Below are positions 1,800 to 14,892 of a stretch of DNA of 64,000 nt, in pieces. Source of the stretch: Lytechinus pictus (Eukaryota); assembly GCF_037042905.1 (NCBI RefSeq), contig NC_087251.1:12154001-12218000 (forward strand). Direction: 5' to 3'. The translations under genes were made by a program, and so were the position numbers. The notes below the pieces were generated by a model. It was not told the origin of the DNA. It was given only the letters and a program-made list of their open reading frames with translations, and ran no database searches. How positions within the stretch are numbered: position 1 is the first letter of the stretch; every line of letters starts with the position of its first letter.

Positions 1800-3880
1800 T
1801 TTGGACTCTGCGAATTCCAAGTTTCTGAAACGAAATAGCTAGACTAATTATCTGTTTATAGAATTGGTGTTCGAAATCATGGTTTCTGAGTGAACTTCAT
1901 TGGAGCAGAAAATCTTGGAGGGAACATCAATACTATTCTAATGACATTCCATACGAATAAACGTAAGTTACGCTCATTTTCATGTTTTGATCTCACTTGC
2001 AAATCATAATGTGTTTACCGGGGTTCGGGGCTCATCCTGTATTACGTATACTATGTAAACCTCAATTTCAATATTTCTTTTGCCTGACTTCCAAATAAGT
2101 CTGATCATTGAGTTTCTCAAAAATACTATATCTAGGGGTCTATAGTTTGTCGTAGATCTAGACATTCATCGGAATGCTTCATGTAGGTCCGAAGTAAACA
2201 TGTATTTCAGTTTTATTGTGATTAGACAATTATCAGGGGTAGATGTGGACTTGTTTCCGACCTCCTGTTTTTTAGTAACGACAAACTGCCGATTTTAGGC
2301 CTATTCAAATTTAGGTCAATGTAGGGTCAGAGCGGGATCCGGCCTTTGATATCGCCGGTGCTAGCCGGCTAGCGAGATTGTCGATGTAGTCATGGGGTAT
2401 AAAAATAGCGGGGACGGACTAGGCCCAAACTTCAAGCTTGAAAGTTGAAGTTTAGGCCTAGTCCGTCCCCGCTATTTCATCTTCATATGAATAAGAATAA
2501 TTCTCAGCAGTTTCTTTTATTCAGGAACTTTTTACTTCAGAACAATCAGTGTTGAAATACGATTGACCTAGCATTAGTGTCTGTTAAATTTTAGTGTTAA
2601 GTGTTAGTGTTACTAAGTCTTACATTTGAATTGAATGAAATGCGTAGCCTACCCTACTCCCTAGACCTAAATCAAGTCTATTTGAACAGGATACACTGGG
2701 CCTGGCCTGGGGTGGTAATTTGAAAACGTTCTTAGTGTTTACTTCATTCAAATGTGATGTGATTCTTAAGTTATACAGGCCCAGCATAGACCAGATCCAG
2801 ATTCAGCTATATACAGCTGTAGAAATATGTGGTTGGAATCATTTTACTTTTATAAACAGAGTGAGGTAGGCCTATGCCTCTATGTGATAGAGAATGAAGT
2901 TTCGGGTCCAGATAACTTTTTTGTTCTAGTTTGGAATATTCATACATAGACCTGGGATATGAGCAGCTAGAAATTTCAAAGATATTGTTAAAGAAGAGTA
3001 ATTTTGTTTATCTCTAAAACTCTCAAATTTAAATTGTCAATTGCAGATCCAATGGGACCAAGTTCTTAACAGTTCACACCTAGTCAGAAGTACAAAATTG
3101 AGAACCATGCCGATCAGCAAGTGTTAGTTACAATCTAATGAGGAACAGGATATCTGAATGGAAAAATTACAAGGTATGCTTACTGTTTTTATATTATACA
3201 GGCTGTATCTAAGCTCATCACCCCCCCCCCCAAAAAAAAAATAAAAAAAAAAATAATAATAATAATAATAAATATTCCCCCTTTTTGGGAGGGGGTGGGC
3301 TATGGCCAATTGTGCTGAAACATGATGCGATATCATGTAATGTTAAAGTTCCATTGTGAGTTAATATTTGTTTGAATTCAGATTCACCAGTATTTCCATT
3401 TTTAACACTGTATACTAATTATCCATATCTCCTGTCTATACATGCATTTGCATAAAAAAAACAAGATATTAACAGTTATCACAAAATTATGATAAATATT
3501 TGAATTAATTTGCACTCTATATTTTCAAAACATACTGTAGATAGTTATATTGATATATGAATTTATCTGGATGTGGGACGAAAGTAACTGCATGTGCTAA
3601 ACTTGTTTTACCACTGAAGAGTATAAAATAGAGTTTACATCTTTTTTTTTATAAACTGGACTAGATGAGTAAGAATAATTTACCGCTTATTTTGTTCTTT
3701 TCTCTTTTTTACCATGCAGGTTTCCCACTTCCCAAGCTGTTTAAGTACTGGTATCACAACATAAGTGCCAAGAAGAGATATGAAGGCCAAGTTAATAAAA
3801 AGTAGTTACTTCATTGTAATAACACATTAAAAATGAATTAATTTGAAATAAATATATTAATAAAGCATTGAATGTTACTT
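1800..3880 (+). ncRNA. Candidate three-exon non-coding transcript (exon ending 1962; 3047..3173; 3720..~3880); 5' end approximate
   Basis: Donor C|GTAAGT at 1963, acceptor TTGCAG| at 3046, donor AAG|GTATGC at 3174, long polypyrimidine tract plus CAG| at 3719, and AATAAA at 3794 with further copies near 3847 and 3859. Only a very short ORF when spliced. Confidence 0.3.
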
Positions 3881-3928
3881 AAATTACACATCTGTAGAAA
3901 AGAATGCGGTACAAGTTCAGGTTCATCA

Positions 3929-4052
3929 CAGGGGCCTCGGAACGGTTTTCAAAGTGTCACAATCGTATGGTAATTTTTACGTTTTTGTACATGGTTTTGG
4001 AAAAAAGTGGGGGGCTGAAGCCCGCCCCCCCCCCCCACTTCCGCGGCCCCTG
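3929..4052. mobile_element. Short MITE with CAGGGGCC(G)CGGAA...TTCCGCGGCCCCTG TIRs
   Basis: TIRs visible and flanked on both sides by CATCA; a related copy lies at 51234..51342. Confidence 0.65.
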
Positions 4053-4895
4053 CATCACCGGGCAATGTCATTGAAGTATACAAGTTTTGGTACAAAATTT
4101 CACACAAAATACAAGTAAGAAATATTTTTCCAACGGGCAAATGTATCACCTTTTATTGATATTTTGTACTTCTTCTAGTTCTTAGTAGTTTTCATGAAAA
4201 TAAATATTTTTTTCCAGTTTAAAGGCCTATTCAATATCAGAATAGGTCTTCCTTTGGTGATATACTTAGGGTTGTAAGACAAAAAATATTGTATTTTGAA
4301 ATAAAAATCATGCATAGCTAAATGATAATAAAAGGTGATCAGAAGATTAAGAAATAATGTTAGTAGCACTCCTGGACCTCATTTCATAAACAAGTTATTA
4401 TTATTGCAATCTTGTCATTATGACAATTATGGTAAAAGGGCTGAGCAAGAAATTAAGGTTTTTATGTTACCTAAAACAGGCTGGGGGCAAAGTTACCATG
4501 ATTACAAGTCTTCAGTGGCGTAACTATGGGGCGGGGCACGTGCCCCCCCCCCCCCTCCCATCAGCTGACAAAAAACAACGAGGAAAAGGGGAGAGGAAGA
4601 GAAACGTAGTGGGAAAGAAGAAATTATTGTTCATTATAATGTTATATTATATTATGATTATGTTATGTTATATTACATAAGAAACATTTTTTTTTTATAA
4701 CTTTATGAAACATAATTTGCTCATGGCCTATGTCTTCAATGTTCTTGGTGCGTGCACTGTCTGTTTAACAAGATATATAATCCTGTTGTACTAAAACCTC
4801 CCGTTTTCAAGTCAATATATACCAAATATATTTCGTCGCACTTCGAGTTATTGTTTTATGTGAAATAGTAGTTAAGGGATAGACCTCATCCTAAT

Positions 4896-5442
4896 TGACC
4901 TTTGACCCATGACCTTTGACCTTTGACCGCATGACCTTTGACCCCAACTTCCGGTCACTGTGGACCCCGTGACCCCACCTTCCGGTCAATCATGACCTTT
5001 GACCTTTGGGTACGCGGTAAACAGGAAATTGGATAATGAAGCGCGGGAAGCGATTTTAATTGGATAATGGAGCGCGGGAAGCGATTTTAATTGGATAATG
5101 GAGCGCGGGAAGCGATTTTAATTGGATAATGGAGCGCGGGAAGCGATTTTAATTGGATAATGGAGCGCGGGAAGCGATTTTAATTGGATAATGAAGCGCG
5201 GGACACGATTTTAATTGGATAATGACTCCGCGTGGGGACGCCATCTTAATTGGATAATGAAACGCGGGACGCGATTTTAATTGGATAATGACTCCGCGTG
5301 GGGACGCCATCTTAATTGGATAATGAAGCGCGGGACGCGATTTTAATTGGATAATGACTCCGCGTGGGGACGCCACGCTTCAACCCGGAAATGATGGGGG
5401 TGAATCTTAAAGAAAGAGTAAAAAGCAGCGCGTGCTATAAAA
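4896..5442 (+). promoter_or_regulatory. Motif-dense terminal region of the Polinton-like TIR; putative inward-facing promoter/origin
   Basis: TGACCTTTGACC nuclear-receptor DR1-like motifs at 4896, 4910, 4932, 4993; ETS-like CTTCCGGT at ~4948 and ~4979; repeated ATTGG; YY1-like CGCCATCTT at 5239 and 5305; TATAAAA at 5436. Confidence 0.5.
5027..5375. repeat. TIR-internal tandem arrays: 31-bp units (AATTGGATAATGGAGCGCGGGAAGCGATTTT) followed by 66-bp compound units
   Basis: Directly visible; copy number differs between the left end and each right-end copy. Confidence 0.9.
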
Positions 5443-5658
5443 CCCGCCAACTTGGACACCCGGCACATTCTGGACCTCGGACTAACCAGAACAGCTCTGC
5501 CTCAGGAACACCAATTTATCTACATGCCATGTTGATAACCGTGTGGATGTTGTTTGCGTTTTGGAAAGCGCCCATGTGTGGTTTCGAATATTGGAATCAT
5601 ATCGAAAAGGTGTTTGAAGAGTGGAAGGCGAAAAGAGAATCGCCAACTATTGACAATC

Positions 5659-5860
5659 ATGAGTCAAGCAAGGTGGACCGCCGAGGACGAGGCGACGTTC
5701 CGCCTCCTTCAGGAGCGCAGGAGGAGAGCAACGGAGCGGCAAAGGCAGGCCAGAGCAGAGGTGGTGGAGAGGATGCGGGAAGAGAACATCGAGGATGAAG
5801 AACGGGACGCGAGGTCTGATATGGACGCGATGGAGGGACATGATGGGGATGAAAATCGAG
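5659..5860 (+). CDS. Putative first coding exon of a small charged coiled-coil protein (MSQARWTAEDEATFRLLQERRRR...); mirrored copies at 10928..11129 (-) and 12757..12958 (-)
   Basis: ATG at 5659 downstream of the TATA box, E/R-rich helical sequence, ends at a strong donor GAG|GTAAGC at 5861. Downstream exon not identified. Confidence 0.45.
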
Positions 5861-7354
5861 GTAAGCGTTTGCTATCCTTATTAGTGAAGGGGAGAAATTA
5901 GAAATTCGAGGTATAGTAGTCATTTTGACCCCAACGCGAATTTAATTAAACACGGGCGGGGTCCGCGTGAAATAGTCATGACGATCAATTACTATATAAT
6001 CACACGCAAAAAGTTTTTGAACCAGTAATACGTCGTATCACGAAGCAAAGACCCTATTATTCATTTTGGTTGTTTCCATTTTATCAACGATGTTGGTCAC
6101 GGTGTGGATAGTATTCGCATGGTGGAGGGAGCCATATATCGGAACCCCCTATTGGACGCGGTTGGGGGAAACGTGGGTGTCAGTGAGCGAAGAACTGAGA
6201 AGGGAAGATGACGCCGCTGATTTGGTATTTGACGGGAAATAAAACTTGTAGGTTCGAGGAAAAATCCGAATCTCACCGATAATTGTGTTTTAACCACCGA
6301 TCGGAAAATTAAAAGGTAAGAATCTTTTACAAACTCTAGGCTTATGCTCTCGTATTAGTGTAAACGATAAATTCACATACGATGTACAAAACAGACGTAT
6401 GATTTCTGCAGAGTTTCCTATTGAAAAAGGGATATTTTTCCGCCTACCGGCGGATATGCCAAGCGTCTTGCATGACGTCACCGGCTACGCAAGCACCGTG
6501 ATGTCATATCCCAGGGAATTACCCTTTACCCGGTATTGCACCACCGTGGCGCAATCGCAACGTATAGGATACGATGCACGAAACAGACGTATGATTTCTA
6601 CACAGTTTCCTATTGAAAAAGTTATCTTTCTCCGCCTACCAGCAGATATTTCAAATGCCTCGCTGTTCACGAATCGATCACCCCATGCACGGCCAACGCG
6701 TCATTGAACTTGGGATATCCTATTCAAGGTGAAAGCCGGCTCTCTCTGTCTCGTATTACAACAATTATCGGTAATCCAACATGTGATTATAATCCTGATA
6801 ACAGCGACATCTCAAGCTCTATTCATTCCAGACTTTCCCCCATCAAAACTCTCTGACTTTTCCATACTGTTTTGTACATACTTCCATACTTTTCATTTTA
6901 ACTCACATGACCTGCACGGCTCTCTGACTCGCAAAAGTATACTATATTGAAACCCGTAGACGATCCCTTTTCAATCAACTTCATTCATCCGCAGTACAGA
7001 TGGTGATAACATGAAACACTATACAGTCAAGGATGATTCTTTATTATTACTATCATTTATTCTATTCCATTTCAATGTAGATAGGTTCAGATAGTGTATA
7101 AACAGCAGATTTTGATACAAAGGTAAAAATAATGTAAGATATGTTCTCAAATTACGTTGTCACAACAAAATAATTAACTGTTCATTGTTAATATTAAAGT
7201 GAAGTTCTCGTTTTTCTATTTCTTCGCTTAACTTAATGGATTGTAACACATGTCTATGGATGGCATTCAGAAAATATGAACACAATGAAGTTCAAACTGT
7301 CATTTATGTTGACGGCGTTTTCTTGGATTATTCGACAAGCTGATGTTTGTGCCT

Positions 7355-8005
7355 TTAGTTGTAGGTTCCATCTTCACCCTCCGTTTCTTCTCCACCATCA
7401 TCATTATCGTCATCGTCACCTTGATACTGGAATAAACCATCGAATTGTGAACCATGCCTGGCTAACACTCTCTGTACGGCTTTCCGGAATTCCATGCCAT
7501 TCTCTAATCTTCCCGTGAGATCGGACACGATTTCACGATTGATGTCAGCGTCTTCGAGGTACACGTTCTGCTGCAAGAACTGAGAGTACAGATCGAAAAA
7601 GATGCGTTTGACTGCCCACATTAGTTTCACGTGAGCCTTTGCTTTAGCGTCTTCTTCTTCCATTCCTTCTGAGATGTATTTCTGATATTTTTCGTCTCTC
7701 AAGTCCTTGGTGGCCGTCATGGCTTGCTCTAACCATCCTCGATAAGCGAGGTTGTCTTCAGTTTCTTCCATGTTTGCTGTCATTGACGATTCGTGTCCAT
7801 CGCTTTCTGATACGCTCGTTTCGGAATCACCGTTGGATTCTTCAACTCTTTGCATTTGAGAGGATGTGTCGGATTCTTCATCTTCACTCGTTTCTTCTCC
7901 AGTATCATGCTCAATTTGTTCATGCCTCTGCATGTTATATTTCCTACTAAAAGTTTTATCGCATCGTGAACAAGCGTAACGGTTGGACATATCCAATGTA
8001 TTCAT
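7355..8005 (-). CDS. C2H2 zinc-finger protein with acidic linker and helical C-terminal domain (copy 1)
   Basis: YACSRCDKTFSRKYNMQRHEQIEH matches C-x2-C-x3-F-x8-H-x4-H. Intact frame; first ATG at 8005 (alternative 7990), since the ORF track starts at a TTG. Confidence 0.75.
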   Translation of the reverse strand: MNTLDMSNRYACSRCDKTFSRKYNMQRHEQIEHDTGEETSEDEESDTSSQMQRVEESNGDSETSVSESDGHESSMTANMEETEDNLAYRGWLEQAMTATKDLRDEKYQKYISEGMEEEDAKAKAHVKLMWAVKRIFFDLYSQFLQQNVYLEDADINREIVSDLTGRLENGMEFRKAVQRVLARHGSQFDGLFQYQGDDDDNDDGGEETEGEDGTYN

Positions 8006-8098
8006 GCTGACTCGATGATTATTTGTTGGGAAATGAAGAAAATTAACGTTCAAACTTGTAATTATACGTTATCATGAAACGCGCGCGAAGGTACTTTG

Positions 8099-8556
8099 AT
8101 TCTTACGGATGTTTACTCATTCTTACGGATTTTTACGGATTCTTACGGATTCTTACTCATTCTTACTCATTCTTACTCATTCTTACGGATTTTTTACGGA
8201 TTCTTACGGATGTTTACGGATTCTTACGGATTCTTACTCATTCTTACGGATTTTTTACGGATTCTTACGGATGTTTACGGATTCTTACGGATTCTTGCGG
8301 ATTTTTACGGATTCTTACGGATGTTTGCGGATTCTTGCGGATTCTTACGGATTTTTGCGGATTCTTACGGATGTTTACGGATTTTTACGGATTTTTACCG
8401 ATTCTTACGGATTCTTACGGATTTTTACGGATTTTTGCGGATTCTTACGGATTCTTACGGATTATAGCTTACGTATTTTTACGGATTTTTACGGATTCTT
8501 ACGGATTTTTACGGATTCTTACGGATTTTTACGGATTCTTACGGATTCTTGCGGAT
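8099..8556 (+). repeat. Decamer minisatellite (ATTCTTACGG and variants) at the palindrome centre; short inverted block at 8627..8691
   Basis: Directly visible tandem 10-mers with ATTTTTACGG, ATGTTTACGG, ATTCTTGCGG and ATTCTTACTC variants. Confidence 0.95.
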
Positions 8557-8783
8557 TCCCATGCTGCATGGGTCATTCCAATGTGGATGAACATATTTTC
8601 CTTGACATTATATGAAAGCATTGATTAATCCGTAAACATCCGTAAGAATCCGTAAAAAATCCGTAAGAATGAGTAAACATCCGTAAGAATCAAAGTACCT
8701 TCGCGCGCGTTTCATGATAACGTATAATTACAAGTTTGAACGTTAATTTTCTTCATTTCCCAACAAATAATCATCGAGTCAGC

Positions 8784-9434
8784 ATGAATACATTGGATAT
8801 GTCCAACCGTTACGCTTGTTCACGATGCGATAAAACTTTTAGTAGGAAATATAACATGCAGAGGCATGAACAAATTGAGCATGATACTGGAGAAGAAACG
8901 AGTGAAGATGAAGAATCCGACACATCCTCTCAAATGCAAAGAGTTGAAGAATCCAACGGTGATTCCGAAACGAGCGTATCAGAAAGCGATGGACACGAAT
9001 CGTCAATGACAGCAAACATGGAAGAAACTGAAGACAACCTCGCTTATCGAGGATGGTTAGAGCAAGCCATGACGGCCACCAAGGACTTGAGAGACGAAAA
9101 ATATCAGAAATACATCTCAGAAGGAATGGAAGAAGAAGACGCTAAAGCAAAGGCTCACGTGAAACTAATGTGGGCAGTCAAACGCATCTTTTTCGATCTG
9201 TACTCTCAGTTCTTGCAGCAGAACGTGTACCTCGAAGACGCTGACATCAATCGTGAAATCGTGTCCGATCTCACGGGAAGATTAGAGAATGGCATGGAAT
9301 TCCGGAAAGCCGTACAGAGAGTGTTAGCCAGGCATGGTTCACAATTCGATGGTTTATTCCAGTATCAAGGTGACGATGACGATAATGATGATGGTGGAGA
9401 AGAAACGGAGGGTGAAGATGGAACCTACAACTAA
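8784..9434 (+). CDS. C2H2 zinc-finger protein (copy 2, translation identical to copy 1)
   Basis: Same protein as 7355..8005; ATG at 8784 (alternative 8799), stop at 9434, AATAAA at 9728 and 9744. Confidence 0.75.
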   Translation: MNTLDMSNRYACSRCDKTFSRKYNMQRHEQIEHDTGEETSEDEESDTSSQMQRVEESNGDSETSVSESDGHESSMTANMEETEDNLAYRGWLEQAMTATKDLRDEKYQKYISEGMEEEDAKAKAHVKLMWAVKRIFFDLYSQFLQQNVYLEDADINREIVSDLTGRLENGMEFRKAVQRVLARHGSQFDGLFQYQGDDDDNDDGGEETEGEDGTYN

Positions 9435-11760
9435 AGGCACAAACATCAGCTTGTCGAATAATCCAAGAAAACGCCGTCAACATAAATGACAGTTTGAACT
9501 TCATTGTGTTCATATTTTCTGAATGCCATCCATAGACATGTGTTACAATCCATTAAGTTAAGCGAAGAAATAGAAAAACGAGAACTTCACTTTAATATTA
9601 ACAATGAACAGTTAATTATTTTGTTGTGACAACGTAATTTGAGAACATATCTTACATTATTTTTACCTTTGTATCAAAATCTGCTGTTTATACACTATCT
9701 GAACCTATCTACATTGAAATGGAATAGAATAAATGATAGTAATAATAAAGAATCATCCTTGACTGTATAGTGTTTCATGTTATCACCATCTGTACTGCGG
9801 ATGAATGAAGTTGATTGAAAGGAGTCGTCTACGGGTTTCAATATAGTATACTTTTGCGAGTCAGAGAGCCGTGCAGGTCATGTGAGTTAAAATGAAAAGT
9901 ATGGAAGTATGTACAAAACAGTATGGAAAAGTCAGAGAGTTTTGATGGGGGAAAGTCTGGAATGAATAGAGCTTGAGATGTCGCTGTTATCAGGATTATA
10001 ATCACATGTTGGATTACCGATAATTGTTGTAATACGAGACAGAGAGAGCCGGCTTTCACCTTGAATAGGATATCCCAAGTTCAATGACGCGTTGGCCGTG
10101 CATGGGGTGATCGATTCGTGAACAGCGAGGCATTTGAAATATCTGCTGGTAGGCGGAGAAAGATAACTTTTTCAATAGGAAACTGTGTAGAAATCATACG
10201 TCTGTTTCGTGCATCGTATCCTATACGTTGCGATTGCGCCACGGTGGTGCAATACCGGGTAAAGGGTAATTCCCTGGGATATGACATCACGGTGCTTGCG
10301 TAGCCGGTGACGTCATGCGAGACGCTTGGCATATCCGCCGGTAGGCGGAAAAATATCCCTTTTTCAATAGGAAACTCTGCAGAAATCATACGTCTGTTTT
10401 GTACATCGTATGTGAATTTATCGTTTACACTAATACGAGAGCATAAGCCTAGAGTTTGTAAAAGATTCTTACCTTTTAATTTTCCGATCGGTGGTTAAAA
10501 CACAATTATCGGTGAGATTCGGATTTTTCCTCGAACCTACAAGTTTTATTTCCCGTCAAATACCAAATCAGCGGCGTCATCTTCCCTTCTCAGTTCTTCG
10601 CTCACTGACACCCACGTTTCCCCCAACCGCGTCCAATAGGGGGTTCCGATATATGGCTCCCTCCACCATGCGAATACTATCCACACCGTGACCAACATCG
10701 TTGATAAAATGGAAACAACCAAAATGAATAATAGGGTCTTTGCTTCGTGATACGACGTATTACTGGTTCAAAAACTTTTTGCGTGTGATTATATAGTAAT
10801 TGATCGTCATGACTATTTCACGCGGACCCCGCCCGTGTTTAATTAAATTCGCGTTGGGGTCAAAATGACTACTATACCTCGAATTTCTAATTTCTCCCCT
10901 TCACTAATAAGGATAGCAAACGCTTACCTCGATTTTCATCCCCATCATGTCCCTCCATCGCGTCCATATCAGACCTCGCGTCCCGTTCTTCATCCTCGAT
11001 GTTCTCTTCCCGCATCCTCTCCACCACCTCTGCTCTGGCCTGCCTTTGCCGCTCCGTTGCTCTCCTCCTGCGCTCCTGAAGGAGGCGGAACGTCGCCTCG
11101 TCCTCGGCGGTCCACCTTGCTTGACTCATGATTGTCAATAGTTGGCGATTCTCTTTTCGCCTTCCACTCTTCAAACACCTTTTCGATATGATTCCAATAT
11201 TCGAAACCACACATGGGCGCTTTCCAAAACGCAAACAACATCCACACGGTTATCAACATGGCATGTAGATAAATTGGTGTTCCTGAGGCAGAGCTGTTCT
11301 GGTTAGTCCGAGGTCCAGAATGCGCCGGGTGTCCAAGTTGGCGGGTTTTATAGCACGCGCTGCTTTTTACTCTTTCTTTAAGATTCACCCCCATCATTTC
11401 CGGGTTGAAGCGTGGCGTCCCCACGCCGACCCTCATTATCCAATTAAAATCGCGTCCCGCGTTCCATTATCCAATTAAGATGGCGTCCCCACGCGGAGTC
11501 ATTATCCAATTAAAATCGCGTCCCGCGCTTCATTATCCAATTAAGATGGCGTCCCCACGCGGAGTCATTATCCAATTAAAATCGCTTCCCGCGCTCCATT
11601 ATCCAATTTCCTGTTTACCGCGTACCCAAAGGTCAAAGGTCATGATTGACCGGAAGGTGGGGTCACGGGGTCAACAGTGACCGGAAGTTGGGGTCAAAGG
11701 TCATGCGGTCAAAGGTCATGGGTCAAAGGTCAATTAGGATGAGGTCTATCCCTTAACTAC

Positions 11761-12444
11761 TGGCGATTCTCTTTTCGCCTTCCACTCTTCAAACACCTTT
11801 TCGATATGATTCCAATATTCGAAACCACACATGGGCGCTTTCCAAAACGCAAACAACATCCACACGGTTATCAACATGGCATGTAGATAAATTGGTGTTC
11901 CTGAGGCAGAGCTGTTCTGGTTAGTCCGAGGTCCAGAATGCGCCGGGTGTCCAAGTTGGCGGGTTTTATAGCACGCGCTGCTTTTTACTCTTTCTTTAAG
12001 ATTCACCCCCATCATTTCCGGGTTGAAGCGTGGCGTCCCCACGCCGACCCTCATTATCCAATTAAAATCGCGTCCCGCGTTCCATTATCCAATTAAGATG
12101 GCGTCCCCACGCGGAGTCATTATCCAATTAAAATCGCGTCCCGCGCTTCATTATCCAATTAAGATGGCGTCCCCACGCGGAGTCATTATCCAATTAAAAT
12201 CGCGTCCCGCGCTTCATTATCCAATTAAGATGGCGTCCCCACGCGGAGTCATTATCCAATTAAAATCGCTTCCCGCGCTCCATTATCCAATTTCCTGTTT
12301 ACCGCGTACCCAAAGGTCAAAGGTCATGATTGACCGGAAGGTGGGGTCACGGGGTCAACAGTGACCGGAAGTTGGGGTCAAAGGTCATGCGGTCAAAGGT
12401 CATGGGTCAAAGGTCAATTAGGATGAGGTCTATCCCTTAACTAC
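11761..12444. repeat. First tandem re-duplication of the right terminus (copy of ~11143..11761 plus one extra 66-bp unit)
   Basis: After ...TTAACTACT the sequence resumes at (T)GGCGATTCTC (matches 11143) and runs to a second ...TTAACTAC. Confidence 0.9.
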
Positions 12445-13656
12445 GTTTCCCCCAACCGCGTCCAATAGGGGGTTCCGATATATGGCTCCCTCCACCATGC
12501 GAATACTATCCACACCGTGACCAACATCGTTGATAAAATGGAAACAACCAAAATGAATAATAGGGTCTTTGCTTCGTGATACGACGTATTACTGGTTCAA
12601 AAACTTTTTGCGTGTGATTATATAGTAATTGATCGTCATGACTATTTCACGCGGACCCCGCCCGTGTTTAATTAAATTCGCGTTGGGGTCAAAATGACTA
12701 CTATACCTCGAATTTCTAATTTCTCCCCTTCACTAATAAGGATAGCAAACGCTTACCTCGATTTTCATCCCCATCATGTCCCTCCATCGCGTCCATATCA
12801 GACCTCGCGTCCCGTTCTTCATCCTCGATGTTCTCTTCCCGCATCCTCTCCACCACCTCTGCTCTGGCCTGCCTTTGCCGCTCCGTTGCTCTCCTCCTGC
12901 GCTCCTGAAGGAGGCGGAACGTCGCCTCGTCCTCGGCGGTCCACCTTGCTTGACTCATGATTGTCAATAGTTGGCGATTCTCTTTTCGCCTTCCACTCTT
13001 CAAACACCTTTTCGATATGATTCCAATATTCGAAACCACACATGGGCGCTTTCCAAAACGCAAACAACATCCACACGGTTATCAACATGGCATGTAGATA
13101 AATTGGTGTTCCTGAGGCAGAGCTGTTCTGGTTAGTCCGAGGTCCAGAATGCGCCGGGTGTCCAAGTTGGCGGGTTTTATAGCACGCGCTGCTTTTTACT
13201 CTTTCTTTAAGATTCACCCCCATCATTTCCGGGTTGAAGCGTGGCGTCCCCACGCCGACCCTCATTATCCAATTAAAATCGCGTCCCGCGTTCCATTATC
13301 CAATTAAGATGGCGTCCCCACGCGGAGTCATTATCCAATTAAAATCGCGTCCCGCGCTTCATTATCCAATTAAGATGGCGTCCCCACGCGGAGTCATTAT
13401 CCAATTAAAATCGCGTCCCGCGCTTCATTATCCAATTAAGATGGCGTCCCCACGCGGAGTCATTATCCAATTAAAATCGCTTCCCGCGCTCCATTATCCA
13501 ATTTCCTGTTTACCGCGTACCCAAAGGTCAAAGGTCATGATTGACCGGAAGGTGGGGTCACGGGGTCAACAGTGACCGGAAGTTGGGGTCAAAGGTCATG
13601 CGGTCAAAGGTCATGGGTCAAAGGTCAATTAGGATGAGGTCTATCCCTTAACTACT
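12443..13656. repeat. Second tandem re-duplication of the right terminus (copy of ~10615..11761)
   Basis: Resumes at (AC)GTTTCCCCCAACCGCG (matches ~10615) and ends at the true terminus abutting the TSD. Confidence 0.9.
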
Positions 13657-14892
13657 TGAAATAGTGTTTCTTTTTCATGACTACTTAAAGTGGTTGCCCC
13701 ATTTTGTGGTCTTAATATAAAATATTTCCTGTCCGTGCTTACGTTCGCATTAGTGGATTGTTGAGATATGTCTTGGATATGTCTTGGCTTCAGTTCTTAA
13801 AATTTCCCCTTTTCTGATCTGAATATCAAACATTTTCAGCTCGCGCTCGCATCATTTGGTTAGTGAAATACGTATGATCTTCGTGAATTCCTACAAACAA
13901 GCCCCTCTTCAGGTCTGAATTTCCTAAATTTTCAGCTCGCACTTTGCGTATGTTAATAATCATGATTAAAATGACTGCAAGTGCTTCATGTGTTTAGATG
14001 TAATTCTAACAAAATCAGCAAGCGCTTGGCACTCGCATTAGATGACTATGGTGAAATATGTATACTCTTAATGGATTCCTAAAATATAGTTCTTAAAATC
14101 TCCCTGTTTGGGCTCAATATATACCAAAATTTCAGCTCGCTTCGCGCTCGCATTGTTTAGCGAGACATGTACGTATCATGATTAAAAATTTGATTAGAAT
14201 GTTACTTTTTAGGTCTGAATATAAAAAATTTTGAGCTCGCGCTACGCGCTCGCATTATTTGACCAGTGAGATACATATCCGTTTAATGGCACTGTCCTTA
14301 AAAATGTCTCTATAAGGTCAATATACCTGGCAACTGAGCACGCTTTACGCGCTCACTAAGTGACTCAAAATTTTTGCTGGTGCCCCCCCTCCCATGCCGT
14401 GACCCACGGTACGCCACTGCAAGTCTTCATAAATTATGTAGGGTTATTAAGTTGCATTTATTGTTATCTTCATTTGAAAAAAATGTGAAATGTGTTACCA
14501 CTGCAATAATATATAAATAGACTATATTTCAAAAATAGATTGAATTCTAACCATAGTGACAGTAGACAAATCAAATTTTGTTAATGATTTGCTTATGTAT
14601 TGATTGGGGAAGGCACTCTTTAGGTAGATTCTGGCATTGTGTCCCCCCCCCCCCTTATGAGGAGTGCTCTCACATCAGTAGACTATTTCTTGTCAGCAAA
14701 TTTGAAAGGAATTTATCAATTTTTTTGAGTGACAAACTTTTGTGGAAAAAGATAAACAAATATCAAAGATTTTTATGCTCTTTTATGGAATATTAACTAT
14801 AGGCTCATCGAGATCCTTTGAATGAAATTTTAACAAACATTGTACAATGTAGAAAAATGTACTTAATCCTATTTTTAGAAAGTAAAAAAGGG

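Follow-up and report, generated by a model that had tools for sequence, protein, structure and literature searches.

The window, a stretch of 64,000 nt of the sea urchin Lytechinus pictus, contains at positions 4867-13656 an element with AGTAGT...ACTACT ends and a flawless TGAAAT target site duplication (TSD) on both sides. These features, reported in the initial annotation, were read directly at the left junction (gTGAAAT/AGTAGTTAAGGG at 4867) and the right junction (CCCTTAACTACT/TGAAAT at 13656), with the two identical, unstranded TSD copies at 4861..4866 and 13657..13662. Polintons are characterised by 5'-AG...CT-3' termini and a 6-bp TSD, and carry genes for pPolB, an rve integrase, a packaging ATPase, a protease and capsid proteins.

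From the outside in, the arms of the element run from a Polinton terminus through subterminal repeats and up to ~1 kb of one autonomous end to a zinc-finger module, and join at a conserved centre that combines 10-nt tandem repeats and a short unique spacer. The left terminal block (4867..5358, + strand) leads from the AGTAGTTA terminus through five TGACCTTTGACC motifs into 31-nt and 66-nt tandem repeats, and holds 11 AATTGGATAATG cores. The outer part of the left arm (5359..6379, +) is in common with one end of pPolB-bearing Polintons and includes small ORFs (e.g. 5659-5901) conserved with a 17-kb element on C6; the inner part, the zinc-finger module (6380..8134, +), aligns to every palindromic copy and not to the 17-kb element, and contains the left copy of a zinc-finger ORF (7355..8005, −; 216 aa from the ATG, open frame 237 aa). 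The non-palindromic centre (8135..8654, +; 520 nt), to the end of which the alignments of several other copies extend, comprises ~46 TTCTTACGGA-type units and a 68-nt unique spacer: the 10-nt array starts at ~8098, inside the arm, and ends at 8558, and the spacer (8559-8626) is followed by a few inverted units. The right arm (8655..11429, −) mirrors 5359-8134 and carries the right copy of the ORF, divergent from the left one (8784..9434, +; C7:12162784-12163431, 100% identical and stop-free).

To the right of this arm lies a first terminus, T1 (11430..11761, −), complete to ...ACTACT, and then 1.9 kb (11761-13656) made of two more truncated right-end copies, each with its own terminus. Extra end copy 1 (11761..12444, −) contains 5359-5645 (287 nt) in reverse complement, followed by terminus T2; it overlaps T1 by 1 nt, and T2 ends in ...ACTAC without the final T (alternatively, there is a 2-nt overlap at the join). 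Extra end copy 2 (12443..13656, −) contains 5359-6174 (816 nt) in reverse complement, followed by T3, the outermost terminus, which adjoins the TSD, and its positions 12972-13655 are 100% identical to the 684 nt of copy 1. In a global alignment the arms (5359-8134, 2776 nt, and 8655-11429, 2775 nt) differ by three mismatches (5361, 5465 and 6469) and one net 1-nt indel near 6964-6968. The near-identity of the arms that had been claimed therefore stands, but these 2.78-kb arms do not make up essentially the whole body, given the 520-nt centre and the 1.9 kb of extra ends. The conserved centre (0.52 kb), the two truncated right-end copies and the 216-aa zinc-finger ORF in each arm had been overlooked.

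As had been noted from the sequence, the element lacks the Polinton core genes: tblastn with every stop-to-stop ORF of ≥80 aa in the 17-kb relative (66 in all) gave no match to pPolB, integrase or ATPase, the shared end region being the sole match, and the same search returned no capsid or protease gene. The only Pfam match among the ORFs of the element was zf-C2H2 (PF00096, E = 1.9e-5, 25.3 bits, cutoff 25.2). The protein, encoded by an intact ORF in both arms, combines a single C2H2 finger with an acidic linker and a C-terminal helical domain; its predicted model is of only moderate quality (pLDDT 63.7), and searches of PDB and BFVD gave no structural match at E ≤ 0.001.

The 17-kb relative (C6:1299810-1316732) has the same termini and a 6-bp TSD, and encodes a pPolB of 1249 aa (PF03175, E = 2e-34), an rve integrase with a chromodomain (PF00665, E = 1e-10), an A32-like ATPase (Pox_A32, E = 1e-7) and a Peptidase_C5 match that falls below the family cutoff (E = 0.037); no capsid family was found in it with Pfam. 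The occurrence of these termini on an element with both pPolB and integrase had been proposed as a check, as had a search for a parent with the arm sequence at one end only, and both were borne out. Positions 5120-6379 are 98.8% identical (15 mismatches, 0 gaps, 1260 nt) to one end only of the pPolB-bearing copy L056 (C17:12.80 Mb), whose match to the left arm, as reverse complement, ends at 6379; the outer ~1.5 kb of the arm is thus Polinton-derived. Moreover, the 1-kb stretch 5376-6376 occurs complete in no copy other than this element and three pPolB-bearing ones, each of which has it once. These comparisons support the earlier proposal that the element derives from one Polinton end.

Relative to autonomous Polintons, the element is alike in its AG...CT termini, its 6-bp TSD and the sequence identity between its outer ~1.5 kb and a pPolB-bearing element in this genome. 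It is unlike them in lacking the core genes, in carrying a zinc-finger gene missing from the relatives examined, and in inverted repeats of ~3.3 kb that fill most of the element, compared with ~545 nt (96.5% identical) in the 17-kb relative. Of the features of a non-autonomous derivative, shared AG...CT TIRs and a 6-bp TSD are both present, and autonomous-derived internal sequence accounts for the outer ~1.5 kb per arm (98.8%), while the autonomous copies examined contain nothing that corresponds to the inner 1.75 kb or the centre.

The element belongs to an abundant family. At least 40 matches to the terminus were scored among 165 candidates in the genome, and at least 150 matches to the zinc-finger ORF among 331 candidates; at least 51 divergent and 2 convergent ORF pairs, together 106 matches, occur among the 149 scored matches tabulated. 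The AGTAGTTA terminus is common to the element, every family copy and the pPolB-bearing copies. Fourteen of 16 two-ended non-autonomous copies have a perfect 6-bp TSD, each expected by chance in 1 of 4096 cases and differing in sequence between copies (the exceptions are L061, with 5/6 positions matching, and L042, with none), and perfect 6-bp TSDs also flank the 17-kb autonomous element and a 26-kb composite. The other palindromic copies with different TSDs that had been predicted are thus present: 14 of the 16 two-ended copies share the palindromic layout and the centre of this element, and the 68-nt-spacer centre recurs in other copies. The element is best explained as a non-autonomous, almost fully palindromic Polinton/Maverick derivative, and its insertion is judged recent from the near-identical arms and the intact TSD.

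The recurrence of this architecture also bears on whether the palindrome, the extra ends or both could be an assembly or fold-back read artefact over an ordinary insertion. Long perfect palindromes and repeated ends are typical failures of long-read assembly, and the structure here is known from an assembly; however, the same architecture occurs at many loci with differing unique flanks, TSDs, breakpoints and variants, the centre is more than a bare switch point, and L061, a second copy with a duplicated right end, has an extra end that is built differently. Given this family evidence, we consider such an artefact very unlikely.

The initial annotation had proposed instead a unique, recent snap-back defective genome, in which the polymerase on one Polinton end switched strands and the product integrated once. 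Daniell, in 1976, is said to have described incomplete adenovirus particles whose DNA carries one end as long inverted repetitions. The element resembles snap-back or copy-back genomes in consisting mostly of two inverted copies of one genome end, with two identical origins and a putative dependence on a helper. That the outer ~1.5 kb matches a pPolB-bearing copy at just one of its ends, that the arms are near-identical and that the complete 1-kb end segment was found in this palindromic copy alone would all suit such an event. However, the inner 1.75 kb and the centre, missing from the autonomous copies examined, are common to at least 51 ORF pairs; the closest relative in the zinc-finger region, L053 (99.6-99.8% identical there), lacks the 1-kb segment; the conserved centre is asymmetric, unlike a fresh switch point; and the distinct flanks and TSDs of the other palindromic copies rule them out as assembly duplicates. 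A one-off copy-back is therefore highly improbable as the origin of this copy, and the conserved, asymmetric centre shows the palindrome to be handed down, not formed anew by random copy-back. Near-identical arms, being a property of the family, are no proof that the palindrome is of recent origin, so that of the recency that had been claimed the part on the insertion stands and the part on the palindrome is unsupported. The presence of the complete segment in this copy alone makes a recent exchange with a helper end plausible.

Measured against snap-back defective viral genomes as defined in PMC13506859, two features do not fit: parental inverted duplication only, since the zinc-finger module and the 10-nt array are missing from the parental-type copies examined, and de novo formation with the switch point as axis, since the 68-nt-spacer centre is common to other copies, with at least 51 divergent ORF pairs. 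Also unlike snap-back genomes, the family is stably inherited in many copies that sit in the germ line between TSDs; its asymmetric centre is conserved, and it carries helper-foreign DNA and its own gene under selection. The label 'defective-interfering' is likewise unfit for an element with a gene under purifying selection.

We assessed how closely the two arms of a copy follow each other within the family. Compared over 1.33 kb of the zinc-finger region, the two arms were identical (distance 0) in 10 of 12 copies and lay 0.0007 and 0.0015 apart in the remaining two, whereas different copies were 1.4% apart at the median and 4.7% at most (339 comparisons over the same 1.33 kb). Inner alignment edges matched between the arms in all 12 other palindromic copies mapped, with 10 different values among copies. 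The arms thus appear to be re-symmetrised during propagation, because those of young copies are identical although the copies differ, and because breakpoints are mirrored. The arms of an older copy, L062, are only 92.5% alike, and arms therefore drift after insertion; this is a single old copy with diverged arms, which may have been asymmetric on insertion. The symmetry is not perfect, as the three sites of difference in the present copy attest, and the tandem-repeat blocks at the termini differ in length (492 nt on the left, 332, 397 and 398 nt on the right), a range (492 vs 332-398 nt) that speaks against fresh copying of the arms unless tandem repeats slip readily.

Since termini are shared and there are many insertions with distinct TSDs, the family would seem to be mobilised in trans by the proteins of an autonomous element. 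The rve integrase of the helper would recognise the shared termini and insert the element, its protein-primed polymerase would copy the element from either identical end, and the two arms would be made alike repeatedly during propagation. Most probably, a displaced single strand would fold back on itself into a hairpin, a long-armed counterpart to the adenovirus panhandle, and be repaired or copied, which would explain the mirrored substitutions and breakpoints of both arms. Extra end copies would arise where the polymerase or repair jumped off a finished end and into the interior of another arm.

Alternatively, the family could be a foldback-type, MITE-like passenger, moved by the cut-and-paste activity of the helper integrase only and never replicated by pPolB, with chromosomal gene conversion between close inverted repeats keeping the arms alike. 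Homogeneous, long and internally repetitive inverted repeats are known in cut-and-paste Galileo and Foldback elements (PMC3573991), which also resemble the present family in homogeneity within each copy and marked structural variation among copies. Unequal terminal blocks would suit local slippage, and the evidence here is genomic, with extrachromosomal replication not part of it. On the other hand, the arms of L062 fell to 92.5%, and several ORF pairs have arms differing in stop codons or identity (e.g. C17:29774452/29776489 and C3:75441185/75442104), which argues that conversion in situ fails to hold arms together for long; in addition, the end-to-internal junctions, with 1-2 nt of overlap, resemble template switches or end joining of linear molecules. 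We regard a passenger of this kind as rather unlikely. A transposon of the Foldback or Galileo type itself was rejected: their TSDs are 9 and 7 bp and their termini of P or MULE type, while the TSD here is 6 bp, both termini and subterminal DNA are of Polinton type, and an rve integrase would act as partner enzyme in place of a P-type or MULE transposase.

Butterfly polintons, as presented in bioRxiv 10.1101/2025.02.07.637071, have TIRs of ~2 kb containing hexon and adenain genes, and are alike in that inverted repeats reach over genes, giving two gene copies per insertion; those elements are of autonomous size with core genes between the TIRs, whereas here the repeat is nearly the whole element and the core is gone.

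Taking these comparisons together with the family data, we consider it probable that the element is a gene-bearing, helper-dependent palindromic Polinton derivative, re-symmetrised during propagation. Between two subfamilies of the zinc-finger ORF, dS was ~0.6 and dN ~0.12 (dN/dS 0.17-0.21, ~0.19), and by this measure the gene is kept intact by purifying selection. The zinc-finger module was absent from the autonomous copies examined, which come from the scored part of the candidate matches. Its protein probably binds the element's own repeats or in another way favours the element over the helper, which would make the family a satellite more than a deletion derivative. The three cognate pPolB copies, two of which contain stops (90-97% identity), compare with more than 100 zinc-finger ORFs among the matches scored, a ratio compatible with interference with the helper.

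A bolder reading, which we offer tentatively, is that the family is a true Polinton satellite, with arms made identical again in every round of protein-primed strand displacement via a repaired or copied snap-back hairpin, and with the zinc-finger protein as its own factor, capturing the helper machinery by binding to the terminal TGACCTTTGACC arrays or to the 10-nt array of the centre. If so, the mirrored changes, the identical-then-drifting arms and the end-to-internal junctions would be the first genomic footprint of Polinton replication. An integrase-only cut-and-paste cycle with gene conversion would also suit most of the data.

Polinton replication is thought to be adenovirus-like; to our knowledge it has never been directly watched, pPolB-driven replication has been shown for no Polinton, and non-autonomous derivatives have hardly been described. 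The family reported here is large and young, and apparently active, with the ends of a Polinton only, a body that is nearly all inverted repeat and its own gene under selection. In practical terms, its elements mis-enter host annotation as proteins (e.g. 'dentin matrix acidic phosphoprotein 1-like') and are fused into adjacent gene models. Among named proteins, the closest homologues are those of Lytechinus pictus. The mirrored changes yield a testable prediction of a single-stranded hairpin intermediate, and arm divergence could act as an insertion clock, like LTR divergence in retrotransposons. Because Lytechinus pictus is a sea urchin now used in germ-line genetics (PMC9245184 and PMC11361634), bench testing of these predictions is possible.

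Direct reading of both junctions, gTGAAAT abutting AGTAGTTAAGGGATAGACC at 4867 and GGTCTATCCCTTAACTACT abutting TGAAATag at 13656, confirmed that the AGTAGT/ACTACT termini and perfect 6-bp duplication reported in the initial annotation are real. The extent of the element was borne out in part: the termini and TSD are as claimed, but the right side is longer than described, with two extra end pieces, and the arms are separated by a 520-nt non-palindromic centre. A repeat search of the window placed the inverted arms at 5359-8134 and 8655-11429 (2776 vs 2775 nt), which differ in a global alignment by 3 mismatches and one net 1-nt indel. The centre runs from a one-directional TTCTTACGGA-type array through a unique 68-nt spacer (8559-8626) to a few inverted units. 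Outside the arms, the terminal blocks consist of TGACCTTTGACC motifs and 31/66-nt tandem repeats, and are unequal in length (left, 492 nt; right, 332, 397 and 398 nt). All 17 matches of the TGACCTTTGACC 12-mer in the 64-kb window fall inside the four termini, compared with 0.03 expected by chance. These arrays (4896-5004, 11631-11732, 12315-12416 and 13526-13627) read on the opposite strand as AGGTCA direct repeats with 1-base spacing, the arrangement of DR1-type nuclear-receptor sites. Binding of host factors to such putative sites beside the origin would parallel adenovirus. The element has inserted among copies of an unrelated short repeat (~100 nt; TAAAA.CTCCC...CAGCTCGC), which flank it on both sides (4792-4826 and 13792-14280). 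An LTR retrotransposon was ruled out by the termini, which do not fit, and by the repeats, which are inverted instead of direct.

We compared the element with a 17-kb autonomous relative in the same genome (C6:1299810-1316732), which shares the AGTAGTTA termini and has CATATT as its TSD and ~545-nt TIRs (96.5% identical). This relative codes for a 1249-aa pPolB (PF03175), an rve integrase with chromodomain, a Pox_A32-type ATPase and a PC4-like protein; it also has a weak adenain-like Pfam match (E = 0.037), and no capsid family was found in it by Pfam. Two other copies of its pPolB, both with stops, were present among the scored matches (C17:12.80 Mb and C21:5.80 Mb). The window arm matches one end only of the pPolB-bearing elements: over 4867-6379 the alignment is to the C6 element's right end, and 5120-6379 is 98.8% identical to the C17 copy, gaplessly, with homology ending at 6379. 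Besides the window element, only the three pPolB-bearing copies contain the 1-kb stretch 5376-6376 in full, each of them once (99, 93 and 92% identity), while other palindromic copies retain just its first 76-466 nt, always in both arms. Neither the zinc-finger module that makes up the inner arm (6380-8134) nor the central 10-nt array was found in the autonomous copies examined, and no scored zinc-finger match lay within 20 kb of a scored pPolB match (comparison of coordinates, with part of the candidates scored in both searches). No ORF of the element matched a Polinton core gene, and when every ORF of the 17-kb relative that reaches 80 aa (66 in total) was searched by tblastn, matches fell in the shared end region only. 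The termini, TSD and end homology are those of a non-autonomous Polinton derivative, and the element departed from an autonomous Polinton on every point compared; judged from these features, it would work like a helper-dependent Polinton derivative.

The window (C7:12154001-12218000 of the 812-Mb assembly) holds one member of a larger family. The first 164 nt of the element had at least 40 genomic matches (40 scored of 165 candidates), and the zinc-finger ORF at least 150 (150 scored of 331 candidates), mostly open frames of 237-238 codons. Among 149 of the scored ORF matches, 106 formed 51 divergent and 2 convergent pairs with a spacing of 0.9-2.7 kb. Sequence was read for 16 two-ended non-autonomous copies (the window copy, L040, L042-L052, L054, L055 and L061), for one old copy and, in part, for three autonomous copies; L041, a duplicate of L040, and L053, with one terminus only, were kept outside the 16. 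Fourteen of the 16 copies are palindromic around the same kind of centre, the exceptions being L043 (second arm truncated) and L046 (single arm). A perfect 6-bp duplication, different in sequence each time, flanks 14 of the 16, with 5/6 positions matching at L061 and none at L042. The one-off event initially envisaged is contradicted by this family of many copies with their own TSDs and a shared centre, and an assembly artefact is a very unlikely source of the multi-locus pattern. Nor did the element prove to be a de novo snap-back defective genome, as had been proposed, because part of its sequence is foreign, its centre is conserved and it is one of a multi-copy family.

Several loci depart from the common form. 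The 2.9-kb single-arm copy L046 (G000:C15:18239402-18242336) consists of a terminus, the 10-nt array, one zinc-finger arm and a terminus, with 416-nt TIRs and the TSD ATTTAT, and is either an ancestral form or a half-deleted palindrome. A 26-kb composite (L031-L033, G000:C6:21765963-21792011) with outward termini and the perfect TSD TACATG holds two palindromic copies and ~11.5 kb of other DNA without a large ORF, and may have moved as a single unit. One palindromic copy is found twice, 25 kb apart, at L040 (G000:C5:41084010-41089619) and L041 (41109311-41114921), and the two are free of mismatches over 6.2 kb. They have the same right flank but unlike left flanks, and L041 is missing its first 8 nt. 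The pair is a very recent segmental duplication ending at the element.

Each arm of the window element carries an intact zinc-finger ORF of 216 aa (7355-8005, minus strand; 8784-9434, plus strand), and both ORFs run outward, diverging from the centre. The protein has one C2H2 finger (PF00096, E = 1.9e-5, 25.3 bits vs a cutoff of 25.2). In an AlphaFold model of moderate confidence (pLDDT 63.7), a disordered acidic linker joins the finger to a helical bundle, and an alignment with homologues in other records (41-75% identity) showed conservation of the finger and the helical C-terminal domain. Foldseek found nothing matching the model in PDB or BFVD at E<=0.001, an Atlas search with the protein returned C2H2 clusters only, and a scan of IMG/VR found no relative. 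Two ORF subfamilies exist at ~72% protein identity, both mostly intact, and between them dS is ~0.6 and dN ~0.12 (dN/dS of 0.17-0.21); on such substitution patterns, the zinc-finger gene is kept by selection. Two pairs of the second subfamily are convergent (C17:9749496-9752503 and C20:8818179-8820910), and this subfamily may be built differently. The nearest named homologues are from the sea urchin Lytechinus pictus. Public models P0001, P0012 and P0015 name the element protein 'dentin matrix acidic phosphoprotein 1-like' and fuse parts of it to sialyltransferase-like and hydroxylysine-kinase-like models. These fused or misnamed gene models are likely annotation contamination from insertions in or near genes.

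We assessed how arm likeness is distributed within and between copies. Within the zinc-finger region (1.33 kb compared), 10 of 12 copies had arms without any difference (distances of 0.0007 and 0.0015 in the other two), and in the same region 339 comparisons between copies gave a median distance of 1.4% and a maximum of 4.7%. In a tree of arms, those of one copy were identical or sisters in 11 of 12 cases. The inner edges of alignment to the window arm were the same in both arms of all 12 other palindromic copies mapped (L042, L044, L045, L047-L052, L054, L055 and L061), and took at least 10 different values (6377 in two copies, 6412, 6452, 6486, 6496, 6508, 6531, 6711, 6727, 7542 and 7301). 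Since edges are mirrored within copies and varied among copies, changes have been copied between the arms on many occasions. Conversion in place would not simply account for this likeness, because the arms of the older copy L062 (~89% identical to the window) are just 92.5% alike and several zinc-finger ORF pairs differ between arms in stop codons or identity. The L040/L041 pair, having 0 mismatches, is uninformative on in-situ conversion versus replicative symmetrisation. The simplest reading is that arms are identical at insertion and drift later, which points to equalisation as a step in the element's own cycle. We infer that this step would pass through a single-stranded hairpin, which would correspond to the adenovirus panhandle but with long arms. 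The centre, being asymmetric and conserved, speaks against a palindrome remade by random copy-back in each round.

The complete right terminus ends at 11761 and is followed by two more end pieces, the first (to 12444) being the reverse complement of 5359-5645 plus a terminus, and the second (to 13656) that of 5359-6174 plus the outermost terminus. Their junctions overlap by 1 and 2 nt, the middle terminus is without its final T, and at the variable site 5465 both extra copies match the right arm, not the left. Simple nested insertion was ruled out as their source, given right-hand termini only and no internal TSDs. Because of the short overlaps and the terminus one base short, the terminus-to-internal junctions seem more readily explained by template switching, or by linear molecules being joined end to end, than by precise joining by integrase. 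L061 also has a duplicated right end, built otherwise, from 879 nt at 99.7% together with 266 nt of the ORF region. Elsewhere, a ~45-kb array of truncated units (G000:C17:8136542-8181441; L036-L039 cover 8149500-8182000) contains at least 10 zinc-finger ORF pairs. Its units are cut at arm position ~6746 and joined straight to a new terminus, the junction of taagaggc to AGTAGT is present twice, and the flank of one terminus is the reverse complement of another's.

Reads were mapped to the left half (3800-8700). For two raw RNA runs, 8.7 and 8.3 million records were covered, ~6% of each, and 172 reads mapped per run, mostly 95-99% alike and aligned over part of their length (138/172 and 155/172), with depth up to ~11 in the terminal block and up to ~5 in the zinc-finger ORF. 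At best, these reads represent family-level transcription, on one or both strands. An RNA joint from 5260 to 6508 (3 reads) lies near the alignment edges of L044 (5225 and 6508) and does not match the window element. Contigs from a DNA run under another species label cover the zinc-finger region, and no junction-spanning piece was seen among them over 3800-8700. Very deep pile-ups of RNA reads and contigs at 3937-4130, whose loose ends are rich in runs of G or C, probably stem from a unit that is highly expressed or repeated and has no relation to the element.

Gene-bearing long TIRs are already on record: butterfly polintons have such TIRs of ~2 kb (10.1101/2025.02.07.637071). Outside the founding papers, the literature searched described no non-autonomous Polinton family that is both palindromic and gene-bearing, and a prior Repbase entry is possible. 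The main interest of the family lies in the mirrored arm changes, which make the proposed mode of Polinton replication testable.
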